DNA of 64,000 nt from an uncultured Eubacteriales bacterium (GCA_948695535.1 CAPRTS010000004.1:37608-101607), one strand, 5' to 3'. Positions 2,020 to 57,792 are shown, numbered from the stretch's first letter. Numbers and translations: made by a program. The notes: generated by a model not told the origin, from the letters alone.

Positions 2020-2030
2020 GGGGGAACATT

Positions 2031-4070: not shown

Positions 4071-6282
<2,212 letters not shown>

Positions 6283-38300: not shown

Positions 38301-41300
38301 TTTAGGTGAAGCTAATTTGGCTTTACGTAGTGGTAATGACTTGTCGGGTATCCGTGGTAAGGCGTGGTATTACCTGAAAAAGAATGACAGTACTTTGCCC
38401 AGTGTTAATGTCGACCTTGAACAATCAGCTTGGACACAATCCTATCAACAAATTACAGCGACTGACCGGGGCATCTATTATGTTTTTGTGATGTTCACGG
38501 AAGGTACCAACCACACCGCCTTGAAACCCATATTGGCTGGGCAAGTGGAAATTACCAAGGCAGGGGCAAGTACTTTGTTGCTGTCGGGAATTCGTTATGA
38601 AGATGACGTAACTTATAATGGTCGCGGGCAACCAATTGCCAGTGGTGAATTGGTCTTGAAAATTGATATGGGTAGTGAATTGGTTACCGCGACGGGAGCA
38701 GGTACTGTGCGTTACGCTTGGGGTAATAGTAATAAATTGGCGCCTAATTTTGCCGATGAAGATTGGGTAACCGATTTGTCGCAACTGACGGCAATTAATG
38801 CAGGAGAATATTACCTTTGGGTTTGGGTTGAAGGTGGCGACAATATAGCATCTTTCCGTGCTTGTCTGGAACACGATGATCATGACCAACCGCGTCAGTA
38901 CCGCTTGATTAAACAAGCAGGGGCGGATAAAGTTGACTTGTCTGGTATTGTACAATACGCTCCGCATTTGGTTTATTCGGGACTTCCACAACAGTTGGCA
39001 ACTGGTAAATTAGTGCAAAAGATTAATAATATTGAAGTTACCAGTGGTTACATTGCTTATGGTTTAGGTTCAGGGCCTAACAAAGGGCAAGAGCCAACTA
39101 ATTGGGTTAATTCATTAAGTTTAATCACGGCTACTGAGGCGACGGCTGATAGTGAATACTATTACATTTGGGTACGCATTGACGAAAGTGCTAATATTGC
39201 TACTAAAACTAAATGCGTTTTACAGGTTAAAATCGACCGAGCTAAGGCCGAGGTGACAGATATCGCTGGTGCAGAAAATTTGTTTTATTATCAAGGCGAT
39301 CAACGTTTATTGGCCTCCCCGGGTAAAGCGAATTTCGGAGAAGTAGTTTACCGCTTGACTGATGGGGGAAATGTTTATGATGCCAGTGATTGGTTGACCG
39401 ATTGGCGTGACGTGGTTGGGCAAAACGCGGGTTGGTATACTGTTTTCTATGCAGTCATTGATAACCCGAATTGGGAATATTACAGCAACAACTTACGTGT
39501 TTATATCCAACGATCTACGGCTACCTTTATTGATAAGCCATTGGCCAAAGAATACTTGGTTTATAACGAACAAGCACAAGATTTACTTGATTTTGGTAAA
39601 TTATTGCCCGAGGCCGCAGCACAGGGATGTCGCATAAAATTTAGTTATGAAGGCGATGACCATTGGTACGAATATTACGATAGCAACCGTGCTACTGATG
39701 AAAAAGATGCCCATTACGTTTGGGGAGAAAGCGGTAAACTACCGGGACGTACGGCCGCCGGCACCTACACCATTCAGTATTACACTACGGGCAGTGATAG
39801 TACCAACAACTATGTAGACGAATATTCGGAAGAGGGCGGTTGGCAGTTGCACACTTTGGTTATTGAAATTAAACGACGCGAAATCATTTGGTTGTCACGT
39901 CCCACGGCACGTTACGGCTTAAAAAATACTGGCGAAAGTCAAGAATTATTGTCGGCGGGGATGTTATCGGCCGAAGGTGGTGATGGTGCAACAATCCAGT
40001 ACACTATCAACAAAGATGGTGCGTGGGAAACTAATATTCCCACGGGGCATGGTGAAAAAATCTTCTATTGTTGGTACCAAGTTCGTTTCAAACCGGATAA
40101 TAATTATTTTATTGATAACGATGAGTTGTACGATGCGGATCAAGTCGCTGACGATGGTTATGTATATACTAGGCCACAAGTTATACAAGTGCTGATGCAG
40201 AAATTGGCATTCTCTTTCCGTGGCGACGAACCAACCAGCACAACGGTCACTTATAATGCTACTAATCAAGTTTTGGTGCAAGGCGGTGAACTGTCAACTT
40301 CGGAAACCGACGTCAATGGTGTTTACGTTAATTACCGTATAAATGGTGGTACTTGGTTAGGCGAAGGTGCTTTGCCAACAGCAGCCAAAATTGGTACTTA
40401 CGAAATTGAATGGGAACTTATATTTGACGAAAATATTTTTGAATACACCGGTAATAATCGGGCTGGTAAATTTACCTCCACTATTGTGCCGGCAGTTATT
40501 GCCGGAAACGAAATTCGTGCAATAATTACCATTGATGAAGATAATAATTATAATATTGGTTTTGACCAAGGCAGTTATTCTAATGAGTTTGGTTTGGAAT
40601 TAAATGAAGTAATTCAGTATCGTTTCCGTCGCCGAGACCAATATTTCACCAACGACGCTTGGCATTTGTGGAATGATAAAGAATTTGGCTTTGATAAAAA
40701 TAAAATTGGTACTTACGAAATTCAAGCCTTCATTGACCCCGAAGCGGGAAGCAACTTCACTGCTTATGAGCAAACGGAACCTTTTGAAACCTTTACCATT
40801 GCTAAGGATTTGCTGGTTAATATTGATATCCGCGATAAGAGTAATCCGCCGTTATTACGCGTGTGGGTTGATTTGACTGGCAATATGGGATATGCAGATT
40901 CGCCATTCAAAACCGAATATAACCCGTTGGATAAGGATAGCGTCGTATTGTACGGCGTTAATTCACCGGGAAATGGTGGACAAGGGGTGATTCGCGTACA
41001 GTGCTATAACGAGTATTATTACTATTTGTCGGATACTTTAGTTAGCGATGACCAAAAAACCAACCGCGAATCCGGTATCAAATTAACTGCGGAAAATACT
41101 CAACAAGCAACGTTAATGCTTAATCCGGGATTGGATGCCATGAATAATAATTATACAGCTTTTATATACGAGGTTTATAAAATCTCTTATGATGCCAATG
41201 GTGGCCGTGGTAGTTTACCTGATGCTTGGAAATGGCATTCTGTACCGTACGAATTGGCGGAAAATAACTTTGACCGCGATGGTTTAATTCCTGATGGTTG

Positions 41301-42120
41301 GAGCAAGTATTCCAGTGGCTCGGGGGAACGTTTCCGTAATGGTAACATGTATTACCACGATAATTTGTCGCAAGTGTTCTACGCACAATACGTGGAGGAA
41401 AACAAGAAAACAGTGTTGATCCGTTGGAAAGTCGGAAATTATGAAATCAGTTCAACGGGTGACTGGTTTAATGCGGAGCAAGAACCAGAACGTGGTAAGG
41501 GTATGACTTACTACTTGAATGAACCAATTTATTTGCCAGATATTTCAGGGCTTCCGGATACGGCAACTTCTGGTTTCCACATCCGGGGTTGGCTCTTTGA
41601 AGGAGAAGACACCGGCTATTTCTGGGGCTGTGTTGCTAATCGGGAAAACTGTGAAGAAATAGTTTTTGTGGCGGATTTGAACAGTAATGGTGATGATTAT
41701 ATCAGTGTCGTTTTCACCAGCGAAGGTAGTCCGGTACACGCGAACGTAATGATTGCTAATGGGGCACAAAGTTACATGGCCTTATCAGGGGTGACGGCCA
41801 GCGATTTCCAAAAATACAATTACCAAAAATTTGTTGATGAATATGACGTAAGTGCAAATGGCCCCATCATTGTGGGTGACAATGATCGTGCCATTACCTA
41901 TGAACTTGGTGCCGCAAAAGAGCCGGAAAAACCACCCGTTATTGAAAAACCCGAGCCTAAACCTGTAAATGACGATAATGCTGGCAGCACGGTTACGATG
42001 GTAATACTAATGGTTGTCGGCTTGCTGATTGCGGCAGTGGCTTTGACTGTTTATCTGTTGTTGCGTAACGGTAAATTAAAAATTAAATTAAAAAGGTTGA
42101 AAGAAGATAAAACCGTATAA
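32347..42120 (+). CDS. giant (3257 aa) membrane-anchored surface repeat protein / putative adhesin
   Basis: N-terminal signal-anchor (KRRKAALLVTGLCAVIFAVVALAF) and a Gly-rich region. About 20 modules each pair Y-[NST]-G... with [AV]G-x-Y-Y-[LIV]-x-[VWY] (MBG-domain-like). One Flg_new/InlB-B-type repeat (YKISYDANGG...GW). C-terminal TM plus KLKIKLKRLKEDK. Confidence 0.85.
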   Translation: MGGKNKRRKAALLVTGLCAVIFAVVALAFCFNDFTLLTREKIYAADVDVGTGKTNTQSSPGQYTFKFSNGVAGETPVYYVEFAGANGGGGKTSSAGRGAVVYGFYKGTSMATNIQGYRGTDKTSGGGYTKVVLNFMNKDGSGEGDSYAAGGGGVADPKTFTISNVYNGKTSSPYSKEFNNGYSGEVGHGGWALGGEPGLAGLGGTHDHAGYSYMSGNAGSSNNGGSSATINNGFSGQGGNGYFGGSSGGYDTFDTDYDYGVTDSSHSTSTTTKYMTNGDILGYTFGGGAGGSSSPNSYPKNTQDNYYYGRGGRMNYSDYWKDSVSTGQGYVKVIRLNASSYPKDVSFVNDNRSHTMPGGTVVSDSSFSGFKTRFIWSTDGGKNWTDWATTAPSATNVGITTVQWRYQIYGLDSTSYTPAQSNDKGIIHQGTAKLIITGAGNAGTLNFDAVNYTGQQHKFITNDPTGATAGATVHYAITTDAGGYYTREESGKLAKNPNDGFTWKPLSTMRGENNWPVNAGTYYVHWYVVARAPSGNDPGNTESKVKWTKFTINKSTPTLSTGTLKGTNPKYNGQMQALFTGAPNVTVNYRGNSYNVASAANILYNLSTSTENPNALFTPTSQLSKLCTDAVSLSSYYLWAKADDSANLNGTDWKFMGEVTKSRIQKATLYATGLKVSEPNSRDYNGRSLPFIAGTPATNLEQSIPLNSPDMGKVQYWRWFIAADELAKKEQDPSYEVKVDRTLYGLDFATVNQAKDAGTYELVVTWTGSNNVESSDPENSTNPQDGTHIGTFTIRKADHNITLGSGLTLINGQTIATGGVPLVADGRLECIMDGNMATELNDVIDGTADGNYVSFYWSQDGVNPPNLDVAAVQDAFLKQGPIGGVSGATSMQLLYNYRTPLAGTWYLWIKFDQHRNIAKDTLVRYDFTVVVNNLPATNVTLQDVNGGLRHNDDLPFDARYHQIATGDFLYAEDFIKIDENDVEYNIFDLSANALIRDWTKDKTQLQVDTFGSYFLTVRWGYTTDENGDNYYHENVDITDEAGIRLYYLDRPFKITTKTNFDDLTFGGLPSTAPAEQPHMYDNTAVRYSAAPETALQFFIDYDAEKRPDPLAKKYADCFDIITFGLSLDANVMPTVYSATIPEATDVGDYYLFVSWTGDKANVKNGLKIYNPDEYLSIIKATKEQIKIDNIQALSAADRTYTGSQIPLFGFVDDSGLPLFSVLNSMQPEISGGEGAEPIKNYKTFNLYGGIIKYALTSTDEAPAPTDSQWVATLAEATQLRVAWKVNTSHDSVDNIAPYYLYVMIQGDRNVEDSIYHQGQDWETTMNLQEAYVDDDKPPRPYPNLSYIAGTSQVLIRNSLQESEAVDGIKPPVEYMLYSPGGEQKWVRNTENVEGGPNMANTIKAADPGTYYIFYRGGHDDNHSVEQPEVIAAGQIGKKDTSGLGVGYKYVVVQIQPATASISVVPSSANMVYNGREQLFFNQGYGKIEGDDRLNLVYAVFDHVVTPSELNALLNLNEKDENAVTNQDFYTRFDEYLTKSNTFALYTEPEKLKRTNAGTYTIYYRADTVHGIGENPLQSVQIDIARTRINAKRLDYLETADTPNQENSKFYKADDYALLRTPLVFGFNGTDGLGTEGPDYALTNEEKYWNTVGKIGDIEYGVAKARTGAGVPETPTTIVGNYLDLTAREAGRYYLYYRVWAGDNHLGSGGKDRGEVPTWICFNEKQPVYILRADSSVVDLSWSTDNFGPIMRYNGQQRTVVTQGDVVLKIGDYVVTDTIGKVQYALTSSTNSPGEISDEWKDTYLAATKEDAGEYYLHVKIDQSDNLTQLIGCVNPFNPAILGKAIAEDLGITGITLYDQMYNGGWLNLAVGNLQVNTIANVGNKQMVIKANILPEVTGYFQYMATQNEPSANWPTEQGLEHATCREVGSYYLYVKIPATDKTEEVVLLVNADPVKITPANEDNIYIVNPNLSEAVEYNGCPHRMILGEANLALRSGNDLSGIRGKAWYYLKKNDSTLPSVNVDLEQSAWTQSYQQITATDRGIYYVFVMFTEGTNHTALKPILAGQVEITKAGASTLLLSGIRYEDDVTYNGRGQPIASGELVLKIDMGSELVTATGAGTVRYAWGNSNKLAPNFADEDWVTDLSQLTAINAGEYYLWVWVEGGDNIASFRACLEHDDHDQPRQYRLIKQAGADKVDLSGIVQYAPHLVYSGLPQQLATGKLVQKINNIEVTSGYIAYGLGSGPNKGQEPTNWVNSLSLITATEATADSEYYYIWVRIDESANIATKTKCVLQVKIDRAKAEVTDIAGAENLFYYQGDQRLLASPGKANFGEVVYRLTDGGNVYDASDWLTDWRDVVGQNAGWYTVFYAVIDNPNWEYYSNNLRVYIQRSTATFIDKPLAKEYLVYNEQAQDLLDFGKLLPEAAAQGCRIKFSYEGDDHWYEYYDSNRATDEKDAHYVWGESGKLPGRTAAGTYTIQYYTTGSDSTNNYVDEYSEEGGWQLHTLVIEIKRREIIWLSRPTARYGLKNTGESQELLSAGMLSAEGGDGATIQYTINKDGAWETNIPTGHGEKIFYCWYQVRFKPDNNYFIDNDELYDADQVADDGYVYTRPQVIQVLMQKLAFSFRGDEPTSTTVTYNATNQVLVQGGELSTSETDVNGVYVNYRINGGTWLGEGALPTAAKIGTYEIEWELIFDENIFEYTGNNRAGKFTSTIVPAVIAGNEIRAIITIDEDNNYNIGFDQGSYSNEFGLELNEVIQYRFRRRDQYFTNDAWHLWNDKEFGFDKNKIGTYEIQAFIDPEAGSNFTAYEQTEPFETFTIAKDLLVNIDIRDKSNPPLLRVWVDLTGNMGYADSPFKTEYNPLDKDSVVLYGVNSPGNGGQGVIRVQCYNEYYYYLSDTLVSDDQKTNRESGIKLTAENTQQATLMLNPGLDAMNNNYTAFIYEVYKISYDANGGRGSLPDAWKWHSVPYELAENNFDRDGLIPDGWSKYSSGSGERFRNGNMYYHDNLSQVFYAQYVEENKKTVLIRWKVGNYEISSTGDWFNAEQEPERGKGMTYYLNEPIYLPDISGLPDTATSGFHIRGWLFEGEDTGYFWGCVANRENCEEIVFVADLNSNGDDYISVVFTSEGSPVHANVMIANGAQSYMALSGVTASDFQKYNYQKFVDEYDVSANGPIIVGDNDRAITYELGAAKEPEKPPVIEKPEPKPVNDDNAGSTVTMVILMVVGLLIAAVALTVYLLLRNGKLKIKLKRLKEDKTV

Positions 42121-43900: not shown

Positions 43901-44701
43901 GTGCGATTCTTTATTCACCCACTGTTTATATTGGTCGCTGGCTTAGCCTTTTTTTACTCGGCGGGGCACTTTTTTGTAGCGTTAATTATCGCGGTATTAC
44001 TGCACGAATCTGCTCACATCTTAGCCGCAAAGCATTACGGACTTTCGCCGTCGCGCTTAGCGTTGACACCGTTTGGTGGGGCAGTAAATTTACAAACTGA
44101 ATTTTTGACGGTTCAGCAACGAAACTTGATCTACTTGGCTGGGCCGGCAGGTAGTTTGTTGTTGACAATGTTTTTTGGGGTGTTAGTGTGGCTGTTCCCG
44201 GTAGTATTTGGTTATTTGGAATATTTGGTCGTGGCAAACTTTTTGGTGGGAATGATGAATGTATTGCCCGTTTATCCTTTGGATGGCGGTAAGGTTATTG
44301 CGGGTTTAGTAAAGCCAAAATACGTGTTATGGTGGTCAAACTTAACCTTTGCGTTAGTATTATTAGTGGCAATAATTAAATTTAATTTTGGTTGGATTGC
44401 TTTCGCGGTAATGGTATTGGTGCAAATTAATTGGGAATACCGTGCTACGACCTATCATGACCATTTCAAACGTTATTGCGGAGCCAAGGTGGGTAAGTAT
44501 GTACAATGCGGAGTTTTGTCATCAATGAAGCTACTGACGGTTTATAAAATGGTTGATGCTCGTCACCCGACTACTTTTGTGGTTACTGATCGTAACGGGC
44601 TAATGTTTGATGAACACGCTTTGGAACAGTGGCTGTTAGCCAACGCTAATGATACGAAAATTGCTTACTGCCTTGACAAAAGCAACACCCATTCAGCATA
44701 A
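43901..44701 (+). CDS. spoIVFB: M50 site-2 metalloprotease, SpoIVFB-like
   Basis: HESAH inside a TM helix and NVLPVYPLDGGKV second motif. Multi-TM N-terminal half plus a soluble C-terminal domain. GTG start. Confidence 0.7.
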   Translation: MRFFIHPLFILVAGLAFFYSAGHFFVALIIAVLLHESAHILAAKHYGLSPSRLALTPFGGAVNLQTEFLTVQQRNLIYLAGPAGSLLLTMFFGVLVWLFPVVFGYLEYLVVANFLVGMMNVLPVYPLDGGKVIAGLVKPKYVLWWSNLTFALVLLVAIIKFNFGWIAFAVMVLVQINWEYRATTYHDHFKRYCGAKVGKYVQCGVLSSMKLLTVYKMVDARHPTTFVVTDRNGLMFDEHALEQWLLANANDTKIAYCLDKSNTHSA

Positions 44702-44726
44702 TGTAATGATTAAGGAGAATTAAAAT

Positions 44727-45281
44727 ATGACCACTGATTATACTCAACAACGCAACTTTATTGCACACTATGCTGATTGCTATAATGCCGATCGTTGTAA
44801 GCGGGTAAAATTGACGCCGCAAATGATGGATAAAATGTACAATTTTTTGTCTAACGCAACCATTGACCAACTTTATAATGCGTGTCAATTCGTGATTGAG
44901 AAAGAAATAAATTACCATTACCGTGACGCTAAGCAAACATCGGTTGACGCGGAAATGGAAGAAACTTACCACATTCTTGGCTTGCATTTTTGGGGAAATT
45001 TGCGTAATCGTTTATACGAGTACAATCGTACCGGGATAAAAGATTTTTATAAGGCGGTGGCAACTGACCAACAGAATATGGCCTATACAGTACATAGTTT
45101 GCAAAAAACTTATACTGAACGCTATGGTTGGCAAAGTACCACTTTGATTGATAATAACCAACAAGGCTTGCAATGTGAACTGGCAACCAGTCAAAGTAAA
45201 TTGGCTTTGTTGCGACAAATTATGAGTTACGCCCCGAAATGGCAGTGCCAAGACCAAGAGCCAGGTCGAGAGCGCGGTTAA
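44727..45281 (+). CDS. hypothetical protein abutting the mobile-element junction (possibly truncated)
   Basis: 184-aa ORF with an AAGGAG SD and no family recognised. Its last 270 nt are overlapped antisense by the recombinase ORF. Confidence 0.5.
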   Translation: MTTDYTQQRNFIAHYADCYNADRCKRVKLTPQMMDKMYNFLSNATIDQLYNACQFVIEKEINYHYRDAKQTSVDAEMEETYHILGLHFWGNLRNRLYEYNRTGIKDFYKAVATDQQNMAYTVHSLQKTYTERYGWQSTTLIDNNQQGLQCELATSQSKLALLRQIMSYAPKWQCQDQEPGRERG

Positions 45282-46805
45282 ACATACATATGGTGGCGTG
45301 GATGGCAGATTGAACGAACTAGCATCATCATAAATCGCGTTATTGATTTTTTGCTCCATATTTTCACTTTTTTCTAAAGACAATCTCTCTTTTGATTTAT
45401 CGACAATGTTGAAAATAACAATAATTTTATTAGGATACAAGCGAATTTCTTTTACTAAGGAATTGATTAACGCTTTTCGAACTTTGACGCTGTTTAATTT
45501 AGTAAATAAGTGTGAACGCAAAAAATCTTCTATATCTGTTTTTTCTAAATAGCCATAACTTCGATTTCTTTCGTTGTTTATCTTGGTTTCAATTTCGTTT
45601 AATTCAACTTCTAATTCATTCAAGCGTTTTTGTGTGAAATCAGAAATAATACCTTGCTCAATTGCTTTAACTATGTTTTGGATAGCCCTAGCAGTTTCTT
45701 TCTTCTTGTTCTCAAGAATGGCCAGATTGGAATCGTCGGTGATTTTCTTATGTAAGTAATCATAAACTTTATTAACAATAAAAATTAAGTTTTCTTCGGT
45801 ATACATTACTTTGCAGATTGTGTCGATGACTAAATCTTCAATATATTCTTTAGCGATTTGTTTAGTATCGCAGCCTTTGGGTTTATGGCGATTTCTATTA
45901 CAAATATAATAATAGTAACTTGTTTTATTCTGACTAGTGCCGCTGACACCAGTCATTTTCTCGTTGCATAAACCACAAACTAATTTACCACTGAGAATGT
46001 AGTTATAAACTGATTTTACCGAATGACGCGAATGCTTATTCTTCTCAAGTAGGGCTTGAACTTGTTCCCAAAGATTATCGTTAATAATTTGTGGATAGAT
46101 ATTAGTAAAGATTTGCCCGCGATGTTCGGTCTTTCCGTTATAGTGTTGTTTGTGTAAAACATGGAAGATATAACGTTCTGTAAAATATTGTCCAGTAGGG
46201 CGCACAAAACCATGGTCATTTAAGTCATCAGCAATTTCATGTGCGGTATAACCTTGGGCATATTTAGTAAAAATTAAGTTAATGATTTTGCGTTCTTTTT
46301 CATTGATAACAAATTTTTTATTGATAATATCATAACCAATAAGTTTGCCACCACCGGTTGCATTGCCTTTCATCCAACTTTCGTATAAACCGCGATTTAC
46401 TTTTTGGCGTAATTCTGCACTATAATATTGATTAATTCCTACAATAACAGATTCCATTAAAGCTCCTTCGGGGCTATCCGGAATATTTTCCATTACAGAA
46501 ATAAGTTTCACGCCATTGTCTTTTAAGGTTTTTTTATGAATGACAGTTTCATATTGGTCACGGGAAAAACGGTCAAGCTTGTACACTAAAACATAATCCC
46601 ATTTTCGTTTCGCTGAGTCTTTAAGCATTCGTTGAAAATCCTTACGGTTATCATTTGTTCCGGTTACCGCACGATCAATATATTTATCGACAATCACAAT
46701 ACTATTGCGATTGGCATAATCTTGACAAACACGAACTTGTCCCTCAATGCTTTGTTCGGTCTGCTTATCACTGGAATAACGGGCGTAGATTACCGCAGTT
46801 TTCAT
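45012..46805 (-). CDS. large serine recombinase
   Basis: N-terminal resolvase domain (AVIYARYSSDKQ, VYKLDRFSRD), recombinase domain, zinc ribbon (CGLCNEKM...YYYICNRNRHKPKGC) and coiled coil. The last ~90 codons (45012-45281) run antisense through the neighbouring ORF and are probably read-through past the element end. Confidence 0.9.
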   Translation of the reverse strand: MKTAVIYARYSSDKQTEQSIEGQVRVCQDYANRNSIVIVDKYIDRAVTGTNDNRKDFQRMLKDSAKRKWDYVLVYKLDRFSRDQYETVIHKKTLKDNGVKLISVMENIPDSPEGALMESVIVGINQYYSAELRQKVNRGLYESWMKGNATGGGKLIGYDIINKKFVINEKERKIINLIFTKYAQGYTAHEIADDLNDHGFVRPTGQYFTERYIFHVLHKQHYNGKTEHRGQIFTNIYPQIINDNLWEQVQALLEKNKHSRHSVKSVYNYILSGKLVCGLCNEKMTGVSGTSQNKTSYYYYICNRNRHKPKGCDTKQIAKEYIEDLVIDTICKVMYTEENLIFIVNKVYDYLHKKITDDSNLAILENKKKETARAIQNIVKAIEQGIISDFTQKRLNELEVELNEIETKINNERNRSYGYLEKTDIEDFLRSHLFTKLNSVKVRKALINSLVKEIRLYPNKIIVIFNIVDKSKERLSLEKSENMEQKINNAIYDDASSFNLPSTPPYVCLTALSTWLLVLALPFRGVTHNLSQQSQFTLTGCQFTLQALLVIINQSGTLPTIAFSISFLQTMYCIGHILLVSCHRLIKIFYPGTIVLV

Positions 46806-46823
46806 CTTCTCTTTTTCTCCTTT

Positions 46824-46970
46824 TTTGTCTTTCGACGGAGCGTAAAAAACGAAAACTCTTATTTGCTTAATGTTTTAAGTTCTACTGATTTGCCGCAAGG
46901 GCTGGGGACCAGTGCAGTTTACCCTTGCGACAAATATGTTTTCGTTTACGCTCCACAGGCGAAAGACAAA
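46824..46970 (-). ncRNA. nested-stem structured leader (three-way junction) immediately 5' of the recombinase SD
   Basis: Hand-folded stems: 11 bp (46824-34/46960-70), 10 bp (46837-46/46945-54), 7 bp (46850-56/46938-44), 13 bp (46889-901/46922-34), 5 bp (46866-70/46875-79). One position is C.A on the plus strand but G.U on the minus strand. Confidence 0.45.
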
Positions 46971-47375
46971 TCTATGGCTTAACTTTGGTTTTGCTGAATG
47001 AGTAACCACTCTAACAATTCCAAATAGAAACTGTCATCTAGCACTCGAACATCTAACTCGTTTTCCAAAATGACTTCATAGTGGTTTTCCATGTTCACAC
47101 CATAAATAAAAACCACTGAACAATGCTATGGAATGACTGGTTAAGTTTTGGAGCAGAGTAGTGATGTTTTTGACTTATATGGTAGTTCTTGACTTTCTTT
47201 GTCGAAAGTATTGCACTATGGTAATATTTGGGATTATTGTAGAGACGAAAATAAAAACACCAACGATGTCCACAAAAGATTAGTTTTTACCCACGCATAA
47301 TCAAAACATCTCCACTTGTGCCATATCCGTATGAAGCACTAATGTTGTAAAGTGAATCAGCTAAAAGGAGATTTT

Positions 47376-47678
47376 ATGACAGCAGCCGATATTCGTAATG
47401 ATTTACGCGAAATTAAGTATTACTATTCTCGAAAAGAGAACATAGACCAATCTGCGAATGAGACTGGTAAAAGTCAGATTTATGCTTTGGTTGATAAATA
47501 TAACCAAGCCATTTGTGAAGCCCAATGTCGGTTGTACGATATGTATGTTGCCATCTATATGAATAATCTCAGTGTTACGGAATTTGCTGATTCAGTTTCT
47601 TATGCTCCTAATTATGTTTTCAAATTGCACCAACAGTTAATCAAGTTTTTTGAGAATAAGTTCAATGCTGTTTTATAA
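47376..47678 (+). CDS. small helical protein, possible sigma-region-4-like HTH (phage type)
   Basis: 100 aa from ATG 47376 (AAGGAG SD). C-terminal LSVTEFADSVSYAPNYVFKL resembles an HTH. Confidence 0.35.
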   Translation: MTAADIRNDLREIKYYYSRKENIDQSANETGKSQIYALVDKYNQAICEAQCRLYDMYVAIYMNNLSVTEFADSVSYAPNYVFKLHQQLIKFFENKFNAVL

Positions 47679-47787
47679 TCTAAGTTAATGTAGCGAAAAC
47701 CATGCAGAAATTAAAGTTTTCGCTGAATAGAGCGAAAGCTGTTGTATATAATAAATTTAAGTGTTATTATAGTTACAAGGAGAAAAT

Positions 47788-48993
47788 ATGTTACAACGCA
47801 ACGAATATCTTAGTAAGTTAATCAAGTGGAAGCACGAAAAACTTATCAAAGTTGTAACCGGGATAAGAAGGTGTGGAAAATCAACTTTATTAAAATTGTT
47901 TGAGAATTATCTTAAAGACAACGGAGTAAATGATTCTCAAATCATTTCAATCAATTTTGAAGATCTACAATTTGAAGAGTTGCGTGATTATAAAGTGCTA
48001 TATAAATACATTTGTGAAAAGTTATGCAAGGATCAATGGAATTATATTTTGCTTGATGAAATCCAAAATGTTGCTAATTTCCAAAGAGTGGTAGACAGTT
48101 TATATGTACAAGATAAAGTCGATATTTATATTACTGGTTCTAATGCGTATACCTTGTCAGGTGATCTTGCTACCTTACTTTCGGGAAGATATATTGAAAT
48201 ATCCATGTTGCCACTTTCTTTTAAGGAATATTACGAATTAAATGGAAATCTTACCAAAGATGATGCCTTCGCAAGGTACCTGAAAAATGGTGGTTTTCCA
48301 TATACCGCCGTTATGAATAATGACGAAAAAATTGAAGATTACCTTGAAGGTATCTACAATACAATCATTGTTAAGGATGTTGAAGAAAGGCAAAACAGAT
48401 CGAACAAGGATATAAATTTTGACGTGGCATTATTAAAATCTATCACAAGATATTTAGCGGATGTGATTGGTAATCCTGTAAGTATAAAGGGCATTACAGA
48501 TTATCTCAATTCTAACAATCGGAAAGTTTCTGACCATACAGTTAGTACTTATGTTACGGCACTTACAGCCGCATTTATTTTTTATCCAGTTGAGCGTTAC
48601 AATATTCAGGGTAAGGAAATCCTAAAAACGAATAAAAAGTTTTATATCGTTGATGTTGGATTGAGAAATCATCTCATCACAAAACGAAATTTAGATCTGG
48701 GTTTTATGCTTGAAAATATAGTCTACCTTGAACTAATCAGGCGAAATTATAAAGTTAATGTTGGTAAAGTTGGGGATAAGGAAATTGACTTTGTCGTGCA
48801 AAAGAATGGAGTTACTGAATATTTTCAAGTCTCTGCGAACGTGAGTGACGAAAAAACTTTTGCAAGAGAAATTTCCCCGCTTGAATCAGTGAAAGATAAT
48901 TATAAAAAGACCATCTTAACGTTAGATAAATTCACGACCGGTAATTACAATGGAATTCTTGTCGAAAACGCGATCGATTGGTTATTGCAATAA
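47788..48993 (+). CDS. AAA-type ATPase (AAA_14 + DUF4143 architecture)
   Basis: Walker A GIRRCGKST and Walker B ILLDEIQ. Length and C-terminal region fit the DUF4143 ATPase family. Confidence 0.75.
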   Translation: MLQRNEYLSKLIKWKHEKLIKVVTGIRRCGKSTLLKLFENYLKDNGVNDSQIISINFEDLQFEELRDYKVLYKYICEKLCKDQWNYILLDEIQNVANFQRVVDSLYVQDKVDIYITGSNAYTLSGDLATLLSGRYIEISMLPLSFKEYYELNGNLTKDDAFARYLKNGGFPYTAVMNNDEKIEDYLEGIYNTIIVKDVEERQNRSNKDINFDVALLKSITRYLADVIGNPVSIKGITDYLNSNNRKVSDHTVSTYVTALTAAFIFYPVERYNIQGKEILKTNKKFYIVDVGLRNHLITKRNLDLGFMLENIVYLELIRRNYKVNVGKVGDKEIDFVVQKNGVTEYFQVSANVSDEKTFAREISPLESVKDNYKKTILTLDKFTTGNYNGILVENAIDWLLQ

Positions 48994-49065
48994 AAAGCTC
49001 CATGATTAGCTAATTATCTTCAATGTAGGATAAATTTACCACCATTGAAGATTAAAAGTTCACCA

Positions 49066-49096
49066 GTCAAACCATATCATTCGGTTTGGCTTTTTT
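49066..49096 (+). terminator. rho-independent terminator
   Basis: GTCAAACC-ATATCATTC-GGTTTGGC hairpin followed by T6. Confidence 0.6.
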
Positions 49097-49270
49097 CTAT
49101 AATGCTCCCGTTAACTGATTGCTGAGAGCAAAGCGAACTGGCGTTCGTAATTGGCTAGGTCGATTTAAGTTTGCCAAATAGTGGCCACAAGGCAAACAAT
49201 CGCCGGGAATAGTGATTCCATTTTAGAACGCTCTTGGTAAGTTCAGTTAAACGAAAAATGGAGGTGCTGT

Positions 49271-49534
49271 ATGGCAAAACAAAATAAAGAACGCCGTTGG
49301 GCAATCCCCAGTAAGCGCGCGGAAAGCTTTGCAGACGAACGCAGAGCCAAAGTTCACAAGCATGGGGAAAAAGAAGGTAAACCCTTGACCGATTACGAAG
49401 CGGGTTTGCGTTCGGGTTACTTAATGTGTCGTTCCGACCAAGCGGGTTTGTACAAGTACAAAACTGCATTAGGGGAAGGCAAATCAAAAGCCGAAGCGAA
49501 ACGCCTTTCACGCATTATTGGGAAAGGCAAATAA
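49271..49534 (+). CDS. small highly basic protein
   Basis: 87 aa, Lys/Arg-rich, no TM. GGAGGTG SD. First gene of the inovirus-like module. Confidence 0.5.
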   Translation: MAKQNKERRWAIPSKRAESFADERRAKVHKHGEKEGKPLTDYEAGLRSGYLMCRSDQAGLYKYKTALGEGKSKAEAKRLSRIIGKGK

Positions 49535-49543
49535 GGAGGGGAA

Positions 49544-49885
49544 ATGGAAAAGAAAATTTTAGTTGAACGCGAAACTTACGAGAAAAATGGCAAGACTTTT
49601 TACAGTTATTTCGTGAAAGGTACCTTGCGGCGTAAACCAGTAAAAGCCAGTATGTCGCCAATGGATATTGGTGGTTATGCGGTACTGGACATTGTGTTTG
49701 GTAACGCCATGACTGCGGAATTGGTGATTACACCCTACGAACTGCACGATGAAAAGTCGGGGCGCACGATTAACGGTAACTCGTATGCGGTGCGTTCTAC
49801 GGACGAGAATGGGGAAGTCTTTGAATGCAAGATTAAACCCTACCGTAACAGCGACAAAATGCTTTTGCAAATGTTGCTGAAATAA
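49544..49885 (+). CDS. hypothetical protein (ssDNA-binding protein candidate by position only)
   Basis: 113 aa with an AAGGAGG SD and beta-rich composition. Confidence 0.45.
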   Translation: MEKKILVERETYEKNGKTFYSYFVKGTLRRKPVKASMSPMDIGGYAVLDIVFGNAMTAELVITPYELHDEKSGRTINGNSYAVRSTDENGEVFECKIKPYRNSDKMLLQMLLK

Positions 49886-49952
49886 AACTGACGACAGGAC
49901 AAGGGAGTAGTTTAACTACTCTCTTGTTTGCTGTCTTAAAAGGAGAGAAACG

Positions 49953-51215
49953 ATGCGAATTGCAATCAAAATTGCCAATGTGGCGTTAGTATTAGTGACA
50001 GTCATGGCGGTTTTAATGACCTTACTTTTAATCTACTTTAAGACGTTTGGTAAGAACAAACTGCCAACCAGTATCACTTCTACTTATGCCACAACAGTTT
50101 ATGATCCAGTTACTGATCGAGATTTACCAGTGCTGGAAGCTAATTATTATGCAAACAAAAATAACCACGGCTACGAAGTAATTGAGTTTAGGATTAACAG
50201 TTATAGTGGATTGTCGAAATCGGCGGTGTATGCCCGTGGCTTTCAAATGACCTGGGATACGAATGGTAAAATTATCCCGTATGTTAACCCGACTACTGGT
50301 GAAAGCAGTGATGTTTTTTATTACGATAGTTTTAATAATGCTTCGTTTGAAACGGGGCACACCTATGGCTGGGGCGATAAAATGTATATTGATTTGGACG
50401 GCGATACTTATGCTGTGGCCATGGATGGTACTTACCAAACTAGCACCACAGGGTTTGATTTAGGTAAGTCGACCGGTAACTTTTTTAAGGCATTTTTTAC
50501 GGATTGGGGGATGTTTAGCCAAGGTAGTAATTGGAACACAACCACGTATTACGACCACAAATACACCTACGTTGATTTATTACTGAAAATTAGACAAATT
50601 ATTAAGTCAAGTTCAAACGGTACTGGTGATGGTGTACTTAGCTTAATTGACTTAGGCGATTTTTTGCACATTTATGAATTAGACGAACATGGTAATGCTA
50701 AACCCGACCCGATTGGTTATAACGGGTTAATTAATAGTTACTTTACCATGTCCACGCACTATGATCAACGCGGCATGGTTTGGACAAAACAATCTTTATT
50801 TCAAAGTGTAGCCGGTGATAGTGAATTTAATTTGACAGGAATTACTGACGAAGTTGAATATTGGCAAGCAACAACAACTTATAATCTAACTGAACAAAAT
50901 TTTGTGCCACGCTACAGTACGGCGGATAATGGCTTTTATTATGTGTTGCCAACCGAACTGATTAACGAATTAAAGAATTATGACCAGATTGAAATTAATG
51001 TAGTGTTTAATCTTGATAACCTGAATGTCAATGTCTTGGGTTTTGATTATTATGCGCTTAATGGCATTACGGTTAAGCAATTAACCATTAGCAGTACCAC
51101 AGAACGCGAATTTCGTTTAATGGTGGGCTCACTGAAAGATACCGGCTTAACCGCAGAAAGCATTACCACCATCAATGTAAAACTAATTAACACGAATTCG
51201 GGGGTGGTGTTATGA
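49953..51215 (+). CDS. N-terminally TM-anchored protein (virion/adsorption protein candidate)
   Basis: 420 aa with signal-anchor IANVALVLVTVMAVLMTLLLIYF. Translationally coupled to the next gene (ATGA). Confidence 0.55.
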   Translation: MRIAIKIANVALVLVTVMAVLMTLLLIYFKTFGKNKLPTSITSTYATTVYDPVTDRDLPVLEANYYANKNNHGYEVIEFRINSYSGLSKSAVYARGFQMTWDTNGKIIPYVNPTTGESSDVFYYDSFNNASFETGHTYGWGDKMYIDLDGDTYAVAMDGTYQTSTTGFDLGKSTGNFFKAFFTDWGMFSQGSNWNTTTYYDHKYTYVDLLLKIRQIIKSSSNGTGDGVLSLIDLGDFLHIYELDEHGNAKPDPIGYNGLINSYFTMSTHYDQRGMVWTKQSLFQSVAGDSEFNLTGITDEVEYWQATTTYNLTEQNFVPRYSTADNGFYYVLPTELINELKNYDQIEINVVFNLDNLNVNVLGFDYYALNGITVKQLTISSTTEREFRLMVGSLKDTGLTAESITTINVKLINTNSGVVL

Positions 51216-51715: not shown

Positions 51716-53550
51716 TGAATTTGAAAGCCTTAATTGTGAGTATCATTTCCGTAATTACGGTTGCAATCTTGGCGATTGTCGGGTATTGCTGCTGGCCCAT
51801 GATTACCGCCAGCATTACGGATAACAAATATTACACTTACGAAGAAATCCAACAAAGTTACCAAGACGGCTATAACGATGGTGCTAAAAGTGAAAGTGAA
51901 CTGATTGCACAAGTTGCGTATTATAAAACTTTGGTCGATGAGTATTACAACAATGTCAATACCTTAAATAACGAGATTAGTTTATTAAGTAAAAATAACC
52001 AAGGATTAAAAGAACGAATTGACCGATTACAAAATACGGAACAAGCACAAGCCAATACGATTGCTAACTTGCAAGGCATTATTGCTGCTAACCAGACAGT
52101 GGTTGACGACCTGAATAATCAACTATATGTCTTAAAAAAGAACATTAAGTATTACGAACAAGTCATTGCTAATCTGGAATTAGAAAACCAAGTAGTCGCG
52201 ACATTTGAGTTTAACGGAATAATTTGTAACATTCAATTACTAGACTATAACGCCATTGCTGCTGATCCCAATCCGGCTTCGACGGAGAACATAATCTTTA
52301 ACGGCTGGACGGTTAATGGGGAACCCGTCGATTTGAGTACCTATCATATTACCAAGAATACTCGTTTCGTCGCCGATGTTATTTATCGCTATACCGTCAA
52401 TTTCACAGTCGATGGTGAGAATATTGAACAGCAAATTTTAGTTAAGGACCAAACGGCAGCATTGCCCGAAACTCCAGTTAAAGATGGTTATGAATTTGAT
52501 GGTTGGTCAATAGATGGCACGAATTTGATTGGTGTTGCTAACACGCCGATTACGGCGGATACCAATTATTTCGCGGTATTTACTAAATTACACACAGTAA
52601 TCTTTAAGCAAGACGGAAAGACTGTTGTTAATCTAACTGTTCGTGATAACGATTATGTTAATGCCCCTGATTTAACATTGGCAGATAACATAATTTTTGA
52701 CGGCTGGTTGGTGGATGGTGAATTAGTTGAAGTTGCGAATTATCAAATTAAGTGTGATGTAACGTTTGTTGCCAGTTTAACCAAAAAAGAAAGTTACTTT
52801 GAACCGGTAAGTTTCACAGTTGTTAATGATAAAAATTTGTCGGGAGCAAGCATTTGGTCAGATGGTGAGAACCTATATTATTCATCAAGTAGTACGCAAT
52901 ACGTTTATAACCATAATACCGGTGAGTGGTCAACTAAGACTTGGAGTGGTAGCCTTACATCATTTAGCGCCAGTTATATTTGGTCGGATGGAACTAATAT
53001 TTACTACTCAACTTATTTGAAACAATATGTCTTAAATAAAGCCACGACAACTTGGGAAGAAAAGGTTTGGGGTGGCATGGCTTACCCCAATAAAAGTGAA
53101 ATATGGACGGACGGTACCGATATTTATCTATCGACGATGAACCCGAACAACAACTATATTTTGAATCGTCAAAATTCAACGTGGGTCAAAATTTCTTGGC
53201 AAGGCGTGTATAACGACTATTTTCATGGCAGTCGGATCTGGTCCGATGGGGTAAATACCTACTTTTCGTTAAGGGATGATTACCAATATGTATTACAAAA
53301 AGGTACGAATACCTGGGTAAATAAAACCTGGAATGGCTTTGTTCCACAAGTGACTAGTTATATCTGGTCCGACGGCGAAAACACTTATTATTCAGATGTC
53401 ACTAACAATCAATTTTATGTATTAGATGTTGCCACTTCAACTTGGCTGCCTAAGAAATGGAATATCTATCTTGATCCAAAGTATTTTTGGTGGGATGGCG
53501 ATACGATGTATTATTCCAGTGGAAAAACGCACTATGTGTTGGTGAAATAA
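51715..53550 (+). CDS. TM-anchored coiled-coil protein with three Flg_new-type repeats and a six-fold W-[ST]-D-G-x-N-x-Y-[YF]-S repeat domain
   Basis: N-terminal TM and coiled coil (aa ~60-160). FNGWTVNG, FDGWSIDG and FDGWLVDG repeats, then six ~45-aa repeats. GTG 51712 is an alternative start. Confidence 0.65.
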   Translation: MNLKALIVSIISVITVAILAIVGYCCWPMITASITDNKYYTYEEIQQSYQDGYNDGAKSESELIAQVAYYKTLVDEYYNNVNTLNNEISLLSKNNQGLKERIDRLQNTEQAQANTIANLQGIIAANQTVVDDLNNQLYVLKKNIKYYEQVIANLELENQVVATFEFNGIICNIQLLDYNAIAADPNPASTENIIFNGWTVNGEPVDLSTYHITKNTRFVADVIYRYTVNFTVDGENIEQQILVKDQTAALPETPVKDGYEFDGWSIDGTNLIGVANTPITADTNYFAVFTKLHTVIFKQDGKTVVNLTVRDNDYVNAPDLTLADNIIFDGWLVDGELVEVANYQIKCDVTFVASLTKKESYFEPVSFTVVNDKNLSGASIWSDGENLYYSSSSTQYVYNHNTGEWSTKTWSGSLTSFSASYIWSDGTNIYYSTYLKQYVLNKATTTWEEKVWGGMAYPNKSEIWTDGTDIYLSTMNPNNNYILNRQNSTWVKISWQGVYNDYFHGSRIWSDGVNTYFSLRDDYQYVLQKGTNTWVNKTWNGFVPQVTSYIWSDGENTYYSDVTNNQFYVLDVATSTWLPKKWNIYLDPKYFWWDGDTMYYSSGKTHYVLVK

Positions 53551-54392
53551 TGATTACCATTATTTTTGCCCCACCACGAACGGGGAAGACTTGTTACATG
53601 ACGCACTGCTTAAATCAATTTGCTTTTGACAAAACGCGTAATCGTAAAATGGCCAATGAGATAACAAATAAGAATGAATGTGGTTTTAATTTAAGTGTCC
53701 CTAAACACTGTGTTAGTGCGAATTACGCCATTACTTTCCGTAAGTTTCGTTACCGCCCACGCACCAGTCGGATGATTAACCCATTTCGGTTGGGGTTTGC
53801 TAATCCGTATGTTAAGACCCATTTTAATCTGCCTTACGAAGTAATTGGCATTACGGAAGCTCAAAAATACTTGAATAGTCGCATGAGCATGTATTTCCCT
53901 GAATGGCAGAGCCGGTGGTACGAACAGCATGGACACAATAATTTAGATATTTATTTAGACACCCAACGCCCAATGTTAATTGATGTGAACATTAGAGAGT
54001 TAGCCCAGTTTGTGGAAATCGTGCAACTGTGGCTGACTTACGATGACCGTAAACGGGTTTGTGGTTTGCGATGGTTAATTCGTAAGATTGCCAATAGTCA
54101 GTTATTTGATCGTTATCTGGCCTCTGGGAAACAGGATACCGCGTGCTACACGGAAGAATTCGTGGTGGCTGATTACAATGTGTTCGCGATGTACGATAGC
54201 CAGTGTTGTAAGCCCAAATTCTATGCGGGACATTTTGACGAAGATTTTGATTACCAAGCAAGTCAGCCCACGGAAGAATCTTTACAAGGTTACCTTGACT
54301 ACCTAGAAAATAACGATGACGAGTTGCCAGCAAATTTTTATGTTAAAAGGAGTAAACCCGATGCTAAACTTTCACAAGAACGATTTAATTGA
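53550..54392 (+). CDS. Zot/pI-like P-loop NTPase (filamentous-phage assembly ATPase family)
   Basis: MITIIFAPPRTGKT Walker A at the extreme N-terminus, VIGITEAQ Walker B, and HGHNNLDIYLDTQRP, as in the Zot family. TAATG coupling to the upstream gene. No TM seen. Confidence 0.7.
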   Translation: MITIIFAPPRTGKTCYMTHCLNQFAFDKTRNRKMANEITNKNECGFNLSVPKHCVSANYAITFRKFRYRPRTSRMINPFRLGFANPYVKTHFNLPYEVIGITEAQKYLNSRMSMYFPEWQSRWYEQHGHNNLDIYLDTQRPMLIDVNIRELAQFVEIVQLWLTYDDRKRVCGLRWLIRKIANSQLFDRYLASGKQDTACYTEEFVVADYNVFAMYDSQCCKPKFYAGHFDEDFDYQASQPTEESLQGYLDYLENNDDELPANFYVKRSKPDAKLSQERFN

Positions 54393-54585
54393 TGCCACCT
54401 TAGTGCGGTATTACCAAAGTTTTGAACACACTTTAGATACCGTGGATTATGTGCCAGAAAAATACAATCAAAAAATTTGTCAGTACATTTTTAAGAATAT
54501 GAAACGAACTTTCCGCAAGATTGATCGGGAAGATCGTAAATACCAACGGCAGTTGCGTAAAGGCGGTGGTGATGGCGTATCTTGA
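54361..54585 (+). CDS. hypothetical small protein
   Basis: 74 aa from ATG 54361 (AAGGAG SD). Overlaps both neighbours. Confidence 0.4.
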   Translation: MLNFHKNDLIDATLVRYYQSFEHTLDTVDYVPEKYNQKICQYIFKNMKRTFRKIDREDRKYQRQLRKGGGDGVS

Positions 54586-55498
54586 TGCAAAAGTGTATTT
54601 TGATGGCAGCCATTATATTGCGATTCCTCACATCACAAGGTTTGTAAAGAAACGAAAGCTAACTCCAGAAGAACCACTTATGCAAGGTGAACAGGACTTG
54701 GGGACGCCCAAGCCCTGTCTGCCGTTGCCTTCACGCAAAGCATTGTTTAACGAATTATACAAGGAACACATTGATTTACCACGCCGTGAACGCGTAGCAA
54801 AAATTACCCAAGCAATGACGCCATATTTCAAGGATAACGAACAATGTCAAAACTTTCTACAACGCCAAATGGAACGCAAAAAACGAAACTTAATCGCTCG
54901 TCGTACACGAATGTTTCGTAAAGCTAGCTTAATTGATTTTAATTACTTCGCAACATTTACTTACGATGACGCGAAACATACTGAACAATCGTTTAAGAAA
55001 GGTTTGCAAACTTGTTTCCGTAATTTGTGTTATCGCCAACATTGGCAGTATCTGGGCGTTTGGGAACGGGCACCCGTAACCAAACGGTTGCATTTCCACG
55101 GTTTATTCCGTATTGCGTCAGAAGCCATGGTTGGTGAATTATTTAGCCATACCGATTACAATTTGTCTTTACATAAACGAACCACGACCATTCAAAACAG
55201 TTATTTTAATGGTCGGTTTGGTCGTACTGATTTTGAATATATCGCCAGCAATAAAGACCTAATCAGAGAACTGCAATACATCTGCAAATACTTAGAAAAA
55301 ACGGAAGAAAGAATTGTGTACAGTAAAGGTCTGTACCAATACTTTGTGAGTGACATCATGAATACGGATGTGGTCTGTCGGATTGGCCGCGAAGACCGCA
55401 AACTTTTGCTGTTTGATGATTTTACTTGTATCAACACTGGTAAAATCCAAGGCAAAGTTAGCCCGACGACGATTGCCAAAATGCGAAAAAGTAACTGA
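54572..55498 (+). CDS. HUH rolling-circle replication initiator (Rep)
   Basis: Motif I FATFTY, motif II LHFHGLF (HUH), motif III YICKYLEK (catalytic Tyr), in canonical order and spacing. Confidence 0.75.
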   Translation: MAYLDAKVYFDGSHYIAIPHITRFVKKRKLTPEEPLMQGEQDLGTPKPCLPLPSRKALFNELYKEHIDLPRRERVAKITQAMTPYFKDNEQCQNFLQRQMERKKRNLIARRTRMFRKASLIDFNYFATFTYDDAKHTEQSFKKGLQTCFRNLCYRQHWQYLGVWERAPVTKRLHFHGLFRIASEAMVGELFSHTDYNLSLHKRTTTIQNSYFNGRFGRTDFEYIASNKDLIRELQYICKYLEKTEERIVYSKGLYQYFVSDIMNTDVVCRIGREDRKLLLFDDFTCINTGKIQGKVSPTTIAKMRKSN

Positions 55499-55667
55499 CG
55501 GACGGTGTGCTGGGCGCTGGCTTTAGCCCGCCAGCCACCGCTTGTGGACGCGTTACAGTGGTGGAGTGGCGGGTGCTTGTTGGCGGAGCTTTAGCGACGC
55601 CACTTGTTATATACAAGCACACGCCGCGCTCTCAAAGTATACTTTTTAAGGTTAAAAGGAGAGAAAA

Positions 55668-57599: not shown

Positions 57600-57622
57600 C
57601 CACCGAATAATCTATTCGGTGG
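57600..57622. terminator. 10-bp perfect hairpin (CCACCGAATA-ATC-TATTCGGTGG); strand of action ambiguous
   Basis: An A-run lies upstream and there is no T-run downstream on the plus strand. The T-run follows on the minus strand. Confidence 0.4.
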
Positions 57623-57792
57623 ACAAATTTCACCTTAATTATATTCAAACTATCATTAAATTGCAAGTATTTTTATCATTTATGTACAGCTAACGACTTT
57701 TATTATTGTTTTAGCCCTTGTTTTGTTCATCAAATAGATTATTCGGTGAACAAAATCTCTGCAAAATGTTCATCTAAAAGGGGCATGGGAAA

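Follow-up and report, generated by a model that had tools for sequence, protein, structure and literature searches.

The window analysed here is a 64,000-nt stretch of DNA from an uncultured Eubacteriales bacterium (CAPRTS010000004.1:37608-101607), which carries a gene for a large serine recombinase (LSR) preceded by a nested hairpin of five stems, P1 to P5. The hairpin lies between the Shine-Dalgarno sequence of the LSR gene and an acidic open reading frame (ORF) of 37 amino acids (Table 1). A sequence-only reading of this region had described the stems, the Shine-Dalgarno sequence and the ORF, all of which are present where it placed them, and had left the element unassigned between a leader RNA and a DNA switch. 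It had also argued that the hairpin is not a terminator and had matched it to no known RNA motif, and both statements hold: no T/U tract or terminator-like site was found at the hairpin when these were looked for in the window, and cmscan against Rfam 15 gave no match in 44000-50000, even at E ≤ 10. With blastn in distant mode, the hairpin region had no similarity in 72,556 plasmids (PLSDB) or 50,697 phage records. On both strands, folding of 46815-46980 is far stronger than in shuffled sequences. Using RNA parameters, a 191-nt stretch folds with -59.9 kcal/mol on the minus strand (z-score -6.1) and -58.8 kcal/mol on the plus strand (z-score -5.4), and folds with DNA parameters reach z-scores of -8.5 and -7.9 on the two strands, with none of 200 shuffles folding as well.

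Table 1. Features of the hairpin, its gene neighbourhood and related loci; positions are those of the window unless a locus is named.
Feature	Position	Strand	Remarks
Whole nested hairpin, P1-P5	46824..46970	.	Basis: folds and family model R1
P1	46824-46834 with 46960-46970		11 bp
P1 arm adjoining the LSR gene	46824..46834		+ strand TTTGTCTTTCG; LSR-sense strand is the near-invariant CGAAAGACAAA block
P1 distal arm	46960..46970		+ strand CGAAAGACAAA
P2	46837-46846 with 46945-46954		GGAGCGTAAA with TTTACGCTCC; irregular, register shifts among relatives
P3	46850-46856 with 46938-46944		CGAAAAC with GTTTTCG; AAA bulge
P3 arm, family register	46847..46856		AAACGAAAAC; pairs with 46938-46947
P4	46889..46934		Outer stem 13 bp, 46889-46901 with 46922-46934; one C.A on + strand
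P4 inner hairpin	46902-46905 with 46909-46912		CTGG with CCAG; 4 bp, covarying
P4 one-sided bulge	46913-46921		9 nt, conserved; + strand TGCAGTTTA
P5	46866..46879		CTTAA 46866-46870 with TTAAG 46875-46879; small variable hairpin
-35-like hexamer TTGCGA	46925..46930	+	Base-paired within P4
-10-like hexamer TACGCT	46947..46952	+	16 nt past the -35, at the P3/P2 boundary
Shine-Dalgarno GGAGAA of the recombinase gene	46815..46820	-	Outside the structure
LSR gene	45012..46805	-	597 aa; Pfam Resolvase, Recombinase, Zn_ribbon_recom
Acidic ORF	46979..47092	-	37 aa; status uncertain
ORFs resembling the 37-aa ORF	L072 2841-2936; L013 2849-2917; L014 683-760
108-aa ORF	47352-47678	+	No Pfam or PHROG match
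P-loop protein gene and 74-aa ORF	Within 53550-56585		P-loop protein with weak Zot match (E 5e-4)
HUH Rep gene	54572-55498		G2P/ORF2 type, PF23343; ATG start at 54572 is the recorded gene
GC-rich structured spacer	55499-55667		170 nt; DNA fold z-score -3.0
Tyrosine integrase gene	55668-56585

A degenerate-pattern scan together with alignment of LSR relatives retrieved 80 loci from metagenome-assembled genomes of Christensenellales and other Clostridia, the LSRs of which are 43-53% identical to the query. Searching with the window sequence, nhmmer detected the hairpin in 26 of these 80 loci at 68-80% nucleotide identity, about 25 nt 5' of the LSR start and in the same orientation, next to LSR proteins that are only about 45-50% identical. 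As proposed in the sequence-only reading, LSR-adjacent copies were also searched for with a covariance model, which returned 28 sources (the window counted) at 128-175 bits. The match of the family model R1 to the window covers 46806-46981 on the minus strand with 137 bits. In approximately 20 further loci, scoring 29-61 bits, the hairpin stands at the same position in a divergent version, with TATC[CA]GA.../...TC[GT]GAT instead of TAAACGRAAAC/GTTTYCGTTT and a longer P4. A gene-blind scan, using a pattern made of hairpin letters only, matched two contigs in IMG/VR and, in metagenomes, at least 120 contigs of mainly gut origin, and the covariance model found 83 elements in the 82 loci of this set that were searched. 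The hairpin represents a conserved family that had not been described before, and its copies in gut Clostridia number over 130.

On the raw MAFFT alignment RNAalifold recovered P4 alone, because the register of P2 shifts; P1, P3 and P4 were then imposed by hand and the copies were realigned with the covariance model. In the consensus, a long P1-P2-P3 helix with internal loops ends in a three-way junction from which P4 and P5 branch. P4 consists of a 13-bp outer stem, a 9-nt bulge TAAARTGCA on the LSR-sense strand and an inner hairpin of 4-5 bp, while P5 varies between a hairpin and a spacer. The conserved register is AAACGRAAAC/GTTTYCGTTT as a single helix with an irregular P2 outside it; the tidy 10-bp P2 of the sequence-only reading does exist in the window, but is a local variant of a stem that is irregular in relatives. 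Standard pairs fill 92.2% of the cells in the LSR-anchored set and 92.0% in the metagenome set, compared to 40-49% and 36-53%, respectively, in a control where the partner was slid by one to three columns. Both-sided changes are found at 24 of 40 pairs (111 cells) in the LSR-anchored set and at 25 of 40 pairs (291 cells) in the metagenome set, and in each set none of 500 shuffles reached any of the covariation measures. The covariation is clearest in the inner hairpin of P4, where CTGG/CCAG, CTAC/GTAG, TTGC/GCAA and TTGT/ACAA all occur. For P2 the excess of own-arm over cross-arm complementarity is modest, with a mean longest run of 5.0 versus 4.1. The hairpin is a genuinely folded single strand, and covariation is silent on whether this strand is RNA or DNA.

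The same covariation bears on another proposal of the sequence-only reading, an invertible DNA switch in which the adjacent serine recombinase recombines the inverted arms and thereby flips a promoter. Like known invertons, the element combines inverted repeats (33-nt arms, 73% complementary, around 81 bp) and a promoter-like motif with a neighbouring serine recombinase. However, 83 copies were found in the native orientation, as set by the downstream LSR, and none in the flipped one, a count for which retrieval was biased to the native form except in the LSR-anchored set. A flip would also give no TAnnnT -10 on the integrase side in relatives, and the arms covary, as expected for pairing and not for a fixed recombinase site. 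The LSR is furthermore of the integrase type acting at the element end, with its own crossover site at its 3' end, at about 45291. We regard inversion as very improbable.

Comparison of the gene neighbourhoods gives a usual order of a rolling-circle Rep gene, the hairpin, a Shine-Dalgarno sequence with a start codon and, usually, an LSR gene. In all of the approximately 105 copies that could be evaluated, AAGGAG and a start codon follow at 21-42 nt (median 33) past the GAAAGAC block of the P1 3' arm, and this spacing holds whether the next gene is this LSR, a small ORF followed by a second LSR clade, or another ORF. LSRs of the window clade begin 6-26 nt past the model match in 52 of 78 copies. 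At about 20 other loci (L169, L120, L113, L160, L115 and others, from metagenomes), the hairpin is followed by an ORF of 64-69 aa (MNNIEVKTIYGRIEDFENNYFFSPSI...) and then by the second LSR clade (MKQKHYIAGLYYRLSQEDERQGES...), which is about 25% identical. No Pfam family matches the 64-69-aa ORF, which could encode a regulatory protein or a directionality factor. On the other side, in 59 of the 80 copies of the motif-retrieved set, the end of an HUH Rep gene (PF23343; E 3.9e-11 for the Rep of L055) is 0-11 nt away from the hairpin. The 37-aa ORF, which the sequence-only reading had presented as the upstream neighbour, is not a constant one, since in most relatives a Rep gene of about 300 aa terminates in its place. 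In about 25-30% of the copies, among them that of the window and most divergent variants, Rep is not adjacent, and these Rep-less copies lie in islands with defence, SOS-type or integrase genes. Among the divergent hairpins, that of L068 has UmuC/ImpB-like and LexA/S24-like genes just 5' of it (859-3208), and those of L019 (1500-2426) and L021 (2354-3280) have a 308-aa tyrosine integrase gene just 5'.

The metagenome contig L164 has two hairpins (4852-5031 and 6734-6914) of 80% identity, each with AAGGAG and ATG about 30 nt past it, the first preceding an ORF of no assigned function and then Rep, and the second preceding the LSR. Blocks of 3.3-4.0 kb, about 95% identical, are shared between loci with unrelated flanks (L124 1023-5018, L109 4126-7406, L112 832-4325) and contain small ORFs, Rep, the hairpin and the LSR, with little other non-coding DNA. 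The unrelated flanks therefore suggest that the smallest carriers are minimal Rep+LSR integrative replicons, that is, very small integrative units of a few small ORFs, Rep, hairpin and LSR.

Given this close association with Rep, the hairpin might be the site that Rep nicks or binds, either a double-strand origin or, if Rep acts as a relaxase, an origin of transfer. HUH enzymes often recognise hairpins, the Rep gene ends next to the element in most copies, the sequence of the P4 bulge and of the blocks GTCGAAAGACAAA does not vary, and the mobile units are so small that they offer little other non-coding DNA. A nick site nevertheless leaves the constant start-codon spacing and the two copies of L164 unexplained, and the hairpin persists where Rep is not adjacent, also in divergent LSR islands that lack a Rep in the vicinity. 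None of the known nick motifs was identified, and a k-mer search 5' of rep for a shared Rep nick motif gave nothing convincing. This assignment appears improbable to us. The constant spacing to the start codon argues for a role in the expression of the downstream gene and against a pure origin role.

Wobble pairs were counted in 3150 paired cells from 107 copies, of which 2853 are Watson-Crick and 174 are other mismatches. On the LSR-sense strand G.T fills 45 cells (1.4%) and A.C, which corresponds to G.T on the other strand, fills 78 (2.5%), 41 of the latter from one column. Wobbles are fewer than ordinary mismatches on either strand and therefore have no privileged status. As G.U pairs are common in structured RNAs, their scarcity is unlike a structured RNA and fits pairing selected at the DNA level. 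The counts do not favour the antisense strand either once the single column is removed, a point to which we return below. A comparison of minimum free energies (MFE) between strands was uninformative, the sense strand being the more stable in 12 of 28 copies with a mean difference of +1.7 kcal/mol.

Inspection of the antisense strand of the LSR gene revealed a promoter-like motif within the hairpin. Anchored on CCCTTG, the pattern TTGnnn-N16/17-TAnnnT (TAnnnT at 16-18 nt past TTGnnn) is present on this strand in 104 of 107 distinct copies and on the sense strand in 2 of 107. The letters that never change are TTG, T(-12), A(-11) and T(-7); those in between vary, the commonest hexamers being TTGACG or TTGACA for the -35 and TACGCT, TAACCT or TACACT for the -10. 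The motif is kept in seven divergent variants with a different P3 sequence, and -10 hexamers of divergent variants include TATAAT (L024), TACAAT (L017) and TACCAT (L019, L068). In the predicted DNA folds of the antisense strand, base-pairing involves the -35 in at least 90% of copies, T(-12) in 96% and A(-11) in only 30%; the four positions after A(-11) are half open. The opposite arm, which would serve as template strand, always bears the P5 insert, so that the arm with the -35, spacer and -10 is uninterrupted. In the sigma-70 open complex the DNA is duplex to -12 and the non-template strand is single-stranded from -11 onward; the predicted geometry of the hairpin is the layout of such a pre-opened promoter. 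Both the opposite-strand motif and the link to a rolling-circle Rep had been missed in the sequence-only reading, and both point to a hairpin that works at the DNA level.

The motif might instead belong to an ordinary double-stranded promoter firing away from the integrase, either antisense to rep or toward the 108-aa gene of the window, with the hairpin unrelated or accessory. Such a promoter would account for the conservation of the -35/-10 motif on that strand, and a conserved, divergent 108-aa gene does lie about 400 nt off in the window and in several Rep-less loci. It would, however, fire into the 3' end of rep in the 59 copies where Rep is adjacent, and would leave the covariation of P2, P3 and P4 unexplained. 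The -10 is moreover G+C-rich and matches TATAAT at four or more of six positions in only 27 of 107 copies. Taken together, these data give the double-stranded promoter a low probability.

The alternative closest to the sequence-only reading is a structured RNA in the sense transcript, either as a 5' leader or as an intercistronic element between rep and the integrase gene, through which a bound protein or ligand would control translation, processing or stability of the integrase message. The fixed distance to the Shine-Dalgarno sequence and start codon is consistent with a leader, as is the location within a co-oriented rep-LSR pair, where read-through would take in the hairpin. Conserved unpaired blocks (the TAAARTGCA bulge and an AGNNT loop) resemble those of ligand- or protein-binding RNAs, a promoter-like site lies upstream in the window at 47037-47008 (minus strand), and the covariation is equally compatible with RNA. 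Against this, promoter-like sites are found in the window at chance level (2 found, 2.0 expected), no Rfam family matches, and G.U pairs are rarer than other mismatches, with an A.C mismatch within P3 on the sense strand in half of the copies. A leader also gives no account of the invariant antisense TTG...TA...T letters at 16-17 nt or of a P5 confined to one arm. The coupling to the recombinase start claimed in the sequence-only reading is thus borne out as regards position, but the RNA in recombinase orientation that went with it is unsupported: the single P4 position, G.U on one strand and C.A on the other, from which that orientation was deduced is not representative of the family, and the suggested gating of the Shine-Dalgarno sequence is unsupported too, since this site lies outside P1 and the rest of the structure in all copies. 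We consider the RNA leader unlikely, if far from negligible.

In Frpo elements and in single-strand origins (sso), folded single-stranded DNA is recognised as a promoter by RNA polymerase of the host (PMC11541004; PMC4595007). By comparison with these, we tentatively favour, at slightly less than even confidence, a predicted single-stranded-DNA promoter or priming hairpin that would launch RNA into the integrase gene. The data show the structure, its covariation, the conserved motif, the geometry and the gene linkage; the identity of the single-stranded strand, the binding of polymerase and the transcript we infer. A housekeeping-sigma promoter would form only when the template strand of the recombinase gene (the plus strand of the window) is single-stranded. 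P4 would then keep the -35 (TTGACn) in duplex, P3 would provide a duplex spacer of 16-17 bp closed by T(-12), A(-11) to T(-7) would sit in the loose P3/P2 junction, resembling a pre-opened -10, and P2 and P1 would act as the downstream duplex. Since the partner arm runs on into the integrase gene, the starting point of RNA polymerase would be some 30-50 nt ahead of the start codon and its product LSR-sense RNA, which would be the integrase mRNA and possibly also a primer for complementary-strand synthesis. In double-stranded DNA the integrase side has no -10, and the same hexamers face away with a G+C-rich -10 that is probably poor; expression of the integrase would thus be tied to the arrival or production of single-stranded DNA. 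This DNA could come from rolling-circle replication by the adjacent Rep or from conjugative transfer, and we count in favour of the promoter that the hosts of the hairpin are probably elements that make single-stranded DNA, as judged from the frequent adjacent Rep and from PcfJ/PcfK-like genes in the window.

Several observations weigh against this promoter. Its commonest -10, TACGCT, shares only 3 of 6 positions with TATAAT, and a conserved C at -8 is not accounted for by the promoter model. An extra hairpin spoils the -35/-10 spacing in five divergent variants (L023, L026, L035, L039, L042), and the wobble counts show no antisense-strand preference, as described above. The promoter pattern was spotted only after the alignment had been viewed. 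The pattern used to retrieve the 83 metagenome copies contained the TA and TTG letters, whose invariance there is partly built in; this bias spares only the 28 LSR-anchored copies and position -7. Finally, the strand displaced in Ff-type phages and many rolling-circle plasmids is the gene-sense one, and for a Rep-hairpin-LSR unit this would be the wrong choice. In conjugative leading regions it is the template strand that becomes single-stranded, which would fit the promoter (PMC11541004).

The structural and promoter-mimic evidence would serve equally well for a single-strand (lagging-strand) origin only, where RNA polymerase primes the second strand and the hairpin has no role in integrase expression. 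Rep is adjacent in 59 of 80 copies, and sso elements have been described as DNA folds that are recognised as promoters (PMC4595007). An origin has no need, though, of a 21-42-nt spacing to a start codon in every copy or of the duplication before two genes in L164. The hairpin also stays with the LSR where no Rep is adjacent, in the window and in divergent variants among others, and shows no sequence similarity in PLSDB plasmids. We therefore rate an origin-only role as rather unlikely.

Among the nearest functional analogues of the promoter that we favour is the Frpo/ssi of the F plasmid leading region, which reportedly goes back to Masai and Arai in 1997. Like Frpo/ssi, the hairpin is a long intrastrand hairpin with -35 and -10 in its stem, just 5' of a gene templated by the folded strand, and it is predicted to be active only while the DNA is single-stranded and to yield an RNA that can also prime DNA synthesis. 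Unlike Frpo/ssi, it is a three-way junction of about 150 nt in uncultured gut Clostridia and Christensenellales, has no sequence similarity to it, and is predicted to drive a serine integrase and not ssb, psiB or anti-defence genes. RNA-polymerase-dependent sso elements (ssoA, ssoT and ssoU; sso1 of ICEBs1, PMC4595007) share with the hairpin a promoter-like folded strand, a (here predicted) orientation specificity and a rolling-circle initiator on the element; in contrast, the hairpin has no homology to known sso types, keeps its fixed position before a start codon and follows the integrase in loci without Rep. As there is no BLAST similarity to described Frpo or sso elements, the hairpin does not belong to any described sequence family and these systems are functional analogues only. 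The Ff minus-strand origin, with its hairpins B and C and sigma-70 holoenzyme, is likewise a single-stranded-DNA promoter mimic, cited as a promoter-like template (PMC7948647), and the likeness extends to the window, which also has a G2P-type Rep and a weak Zot-like P-loop protein. In the Ff origin, however, the folded strand is the gene-sense strand and yields a short primer only, whereas here the mimic is on the template strand of the neighbouring gene. Three features are new: the architecture as a three-way junction, the hosts, which are Gram-positive gut bacteria, and the link of the hairpin to a serine integrase; the functional steps are our inference.

More broadly, the hairpins may form a widespread and so far unnoticed class of fold-back promoters in Gram-positive gut mobile elements, which would make integrase expression conditional on single-strandedness ('zygotic' induction), would also prime the second strand and would then silence themselves; we hold this generalisation with somewhat less confidence than the promoter assignment itself. 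If it is true, single-stranded-DNA promoters would extend past the anti-defence genes of enterobacterial leading regions and the primer-only origins of small plasmids into a new setting, the control of integration, both in tiny Rep+LSR elements and in larger islands of abundant gut Clostridia. A promoterless integrase gene would be active shortly after entry and shut down when the element has become double-stranded and integrated. This would be a compact self-extinguishing expression module beside large serine recombinases, enzymes that interest genome engineers. Whether or not the mechanism holds, the hairpin constitutes a new family of structured nucleic acids that shows strong covariation, is missing from Rfam 15 and has a covariance model in hand.

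Among exact copies of the LSR there are two length forms, of 597 aa (P0001) and of 526 aa (P0002). In the contigs that carry them (L001-L012), the window is identical at 99.99-100% from 45291 to at least 64000, but left of 45291 these contigs have only 75-78% identity or extra genes (ogt, a gene of about 500 aa). The junction sequence at about 45291 reads ...GCCACCA followed by TATGTATG, and the 526-aa form belongs to the same element beside an ogt/MGMT gene. The identity break therefore marks the left end of a mobile element at least 18.7 kb long, where the LSR sits, and the hairpin, judged from these contigs, is internal to this element. Since the LSR frame crosses this boundary, the last approximately 90 codons (45012 to about 45290) are host-encoded and depend on the insertion site. 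The 37-aa ORF has weak similarity (E 0.004-0.3) to small ORFs directly 5' of rep in canonical units, and the window copy may be a Rep-hairpin-LSR unit after loss of rep. At least 24 related loci have a homologue of the divergent 108-aa ORF (tblastn E 1e-28 to 1e-4), likewise placed divergently 5' of the LSR, which makes this ORF a conserved partner of this LSR lineage. Other genes in the element are an AAA_14 ATPase, KilA-N and the conjugation-associated PcfJ/PcfK-like genes.

A filamentous-phage-like or rolling-circle module occupies 53550-56585 of the window. Its Rep-spacer-integrase order is that of the hairpin family, with a different spacer and integrase type, and comparison with the family model and the sequence rejected the spacer as a second copy of the hairpin. 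The idea that all hairpin loci are inoviruses was also rejected, as the Zot-like protein of the window is not common to the canonical loci. No att-type direct repeats of a nested prophage were found between 46970 and 57800.

Between the KilA-N gene and the gene for a 1278-aa leucine-rich-repeat (LRR)/Flg_new surface protein, two further hairpins (57601-57748) share a 16-nt word, CACCGAATAATCTATT, in inverted orientation, with 27-nt arms that are 89% complementary and 94 nt apart; the overall fold is not significant (z-score -1.6). The window also contains two very large ORFs, of 3257 aa (32347-42120), in a stretch of higher GC content (about 50%), and of 1278 aa (57793-61629). The 1278-aa protein combines BspA-type LRR with the Listeria-Bacteroides repeat and has many internal DNA repeats, and its length is 1117 aa in the near-identical copy L010.

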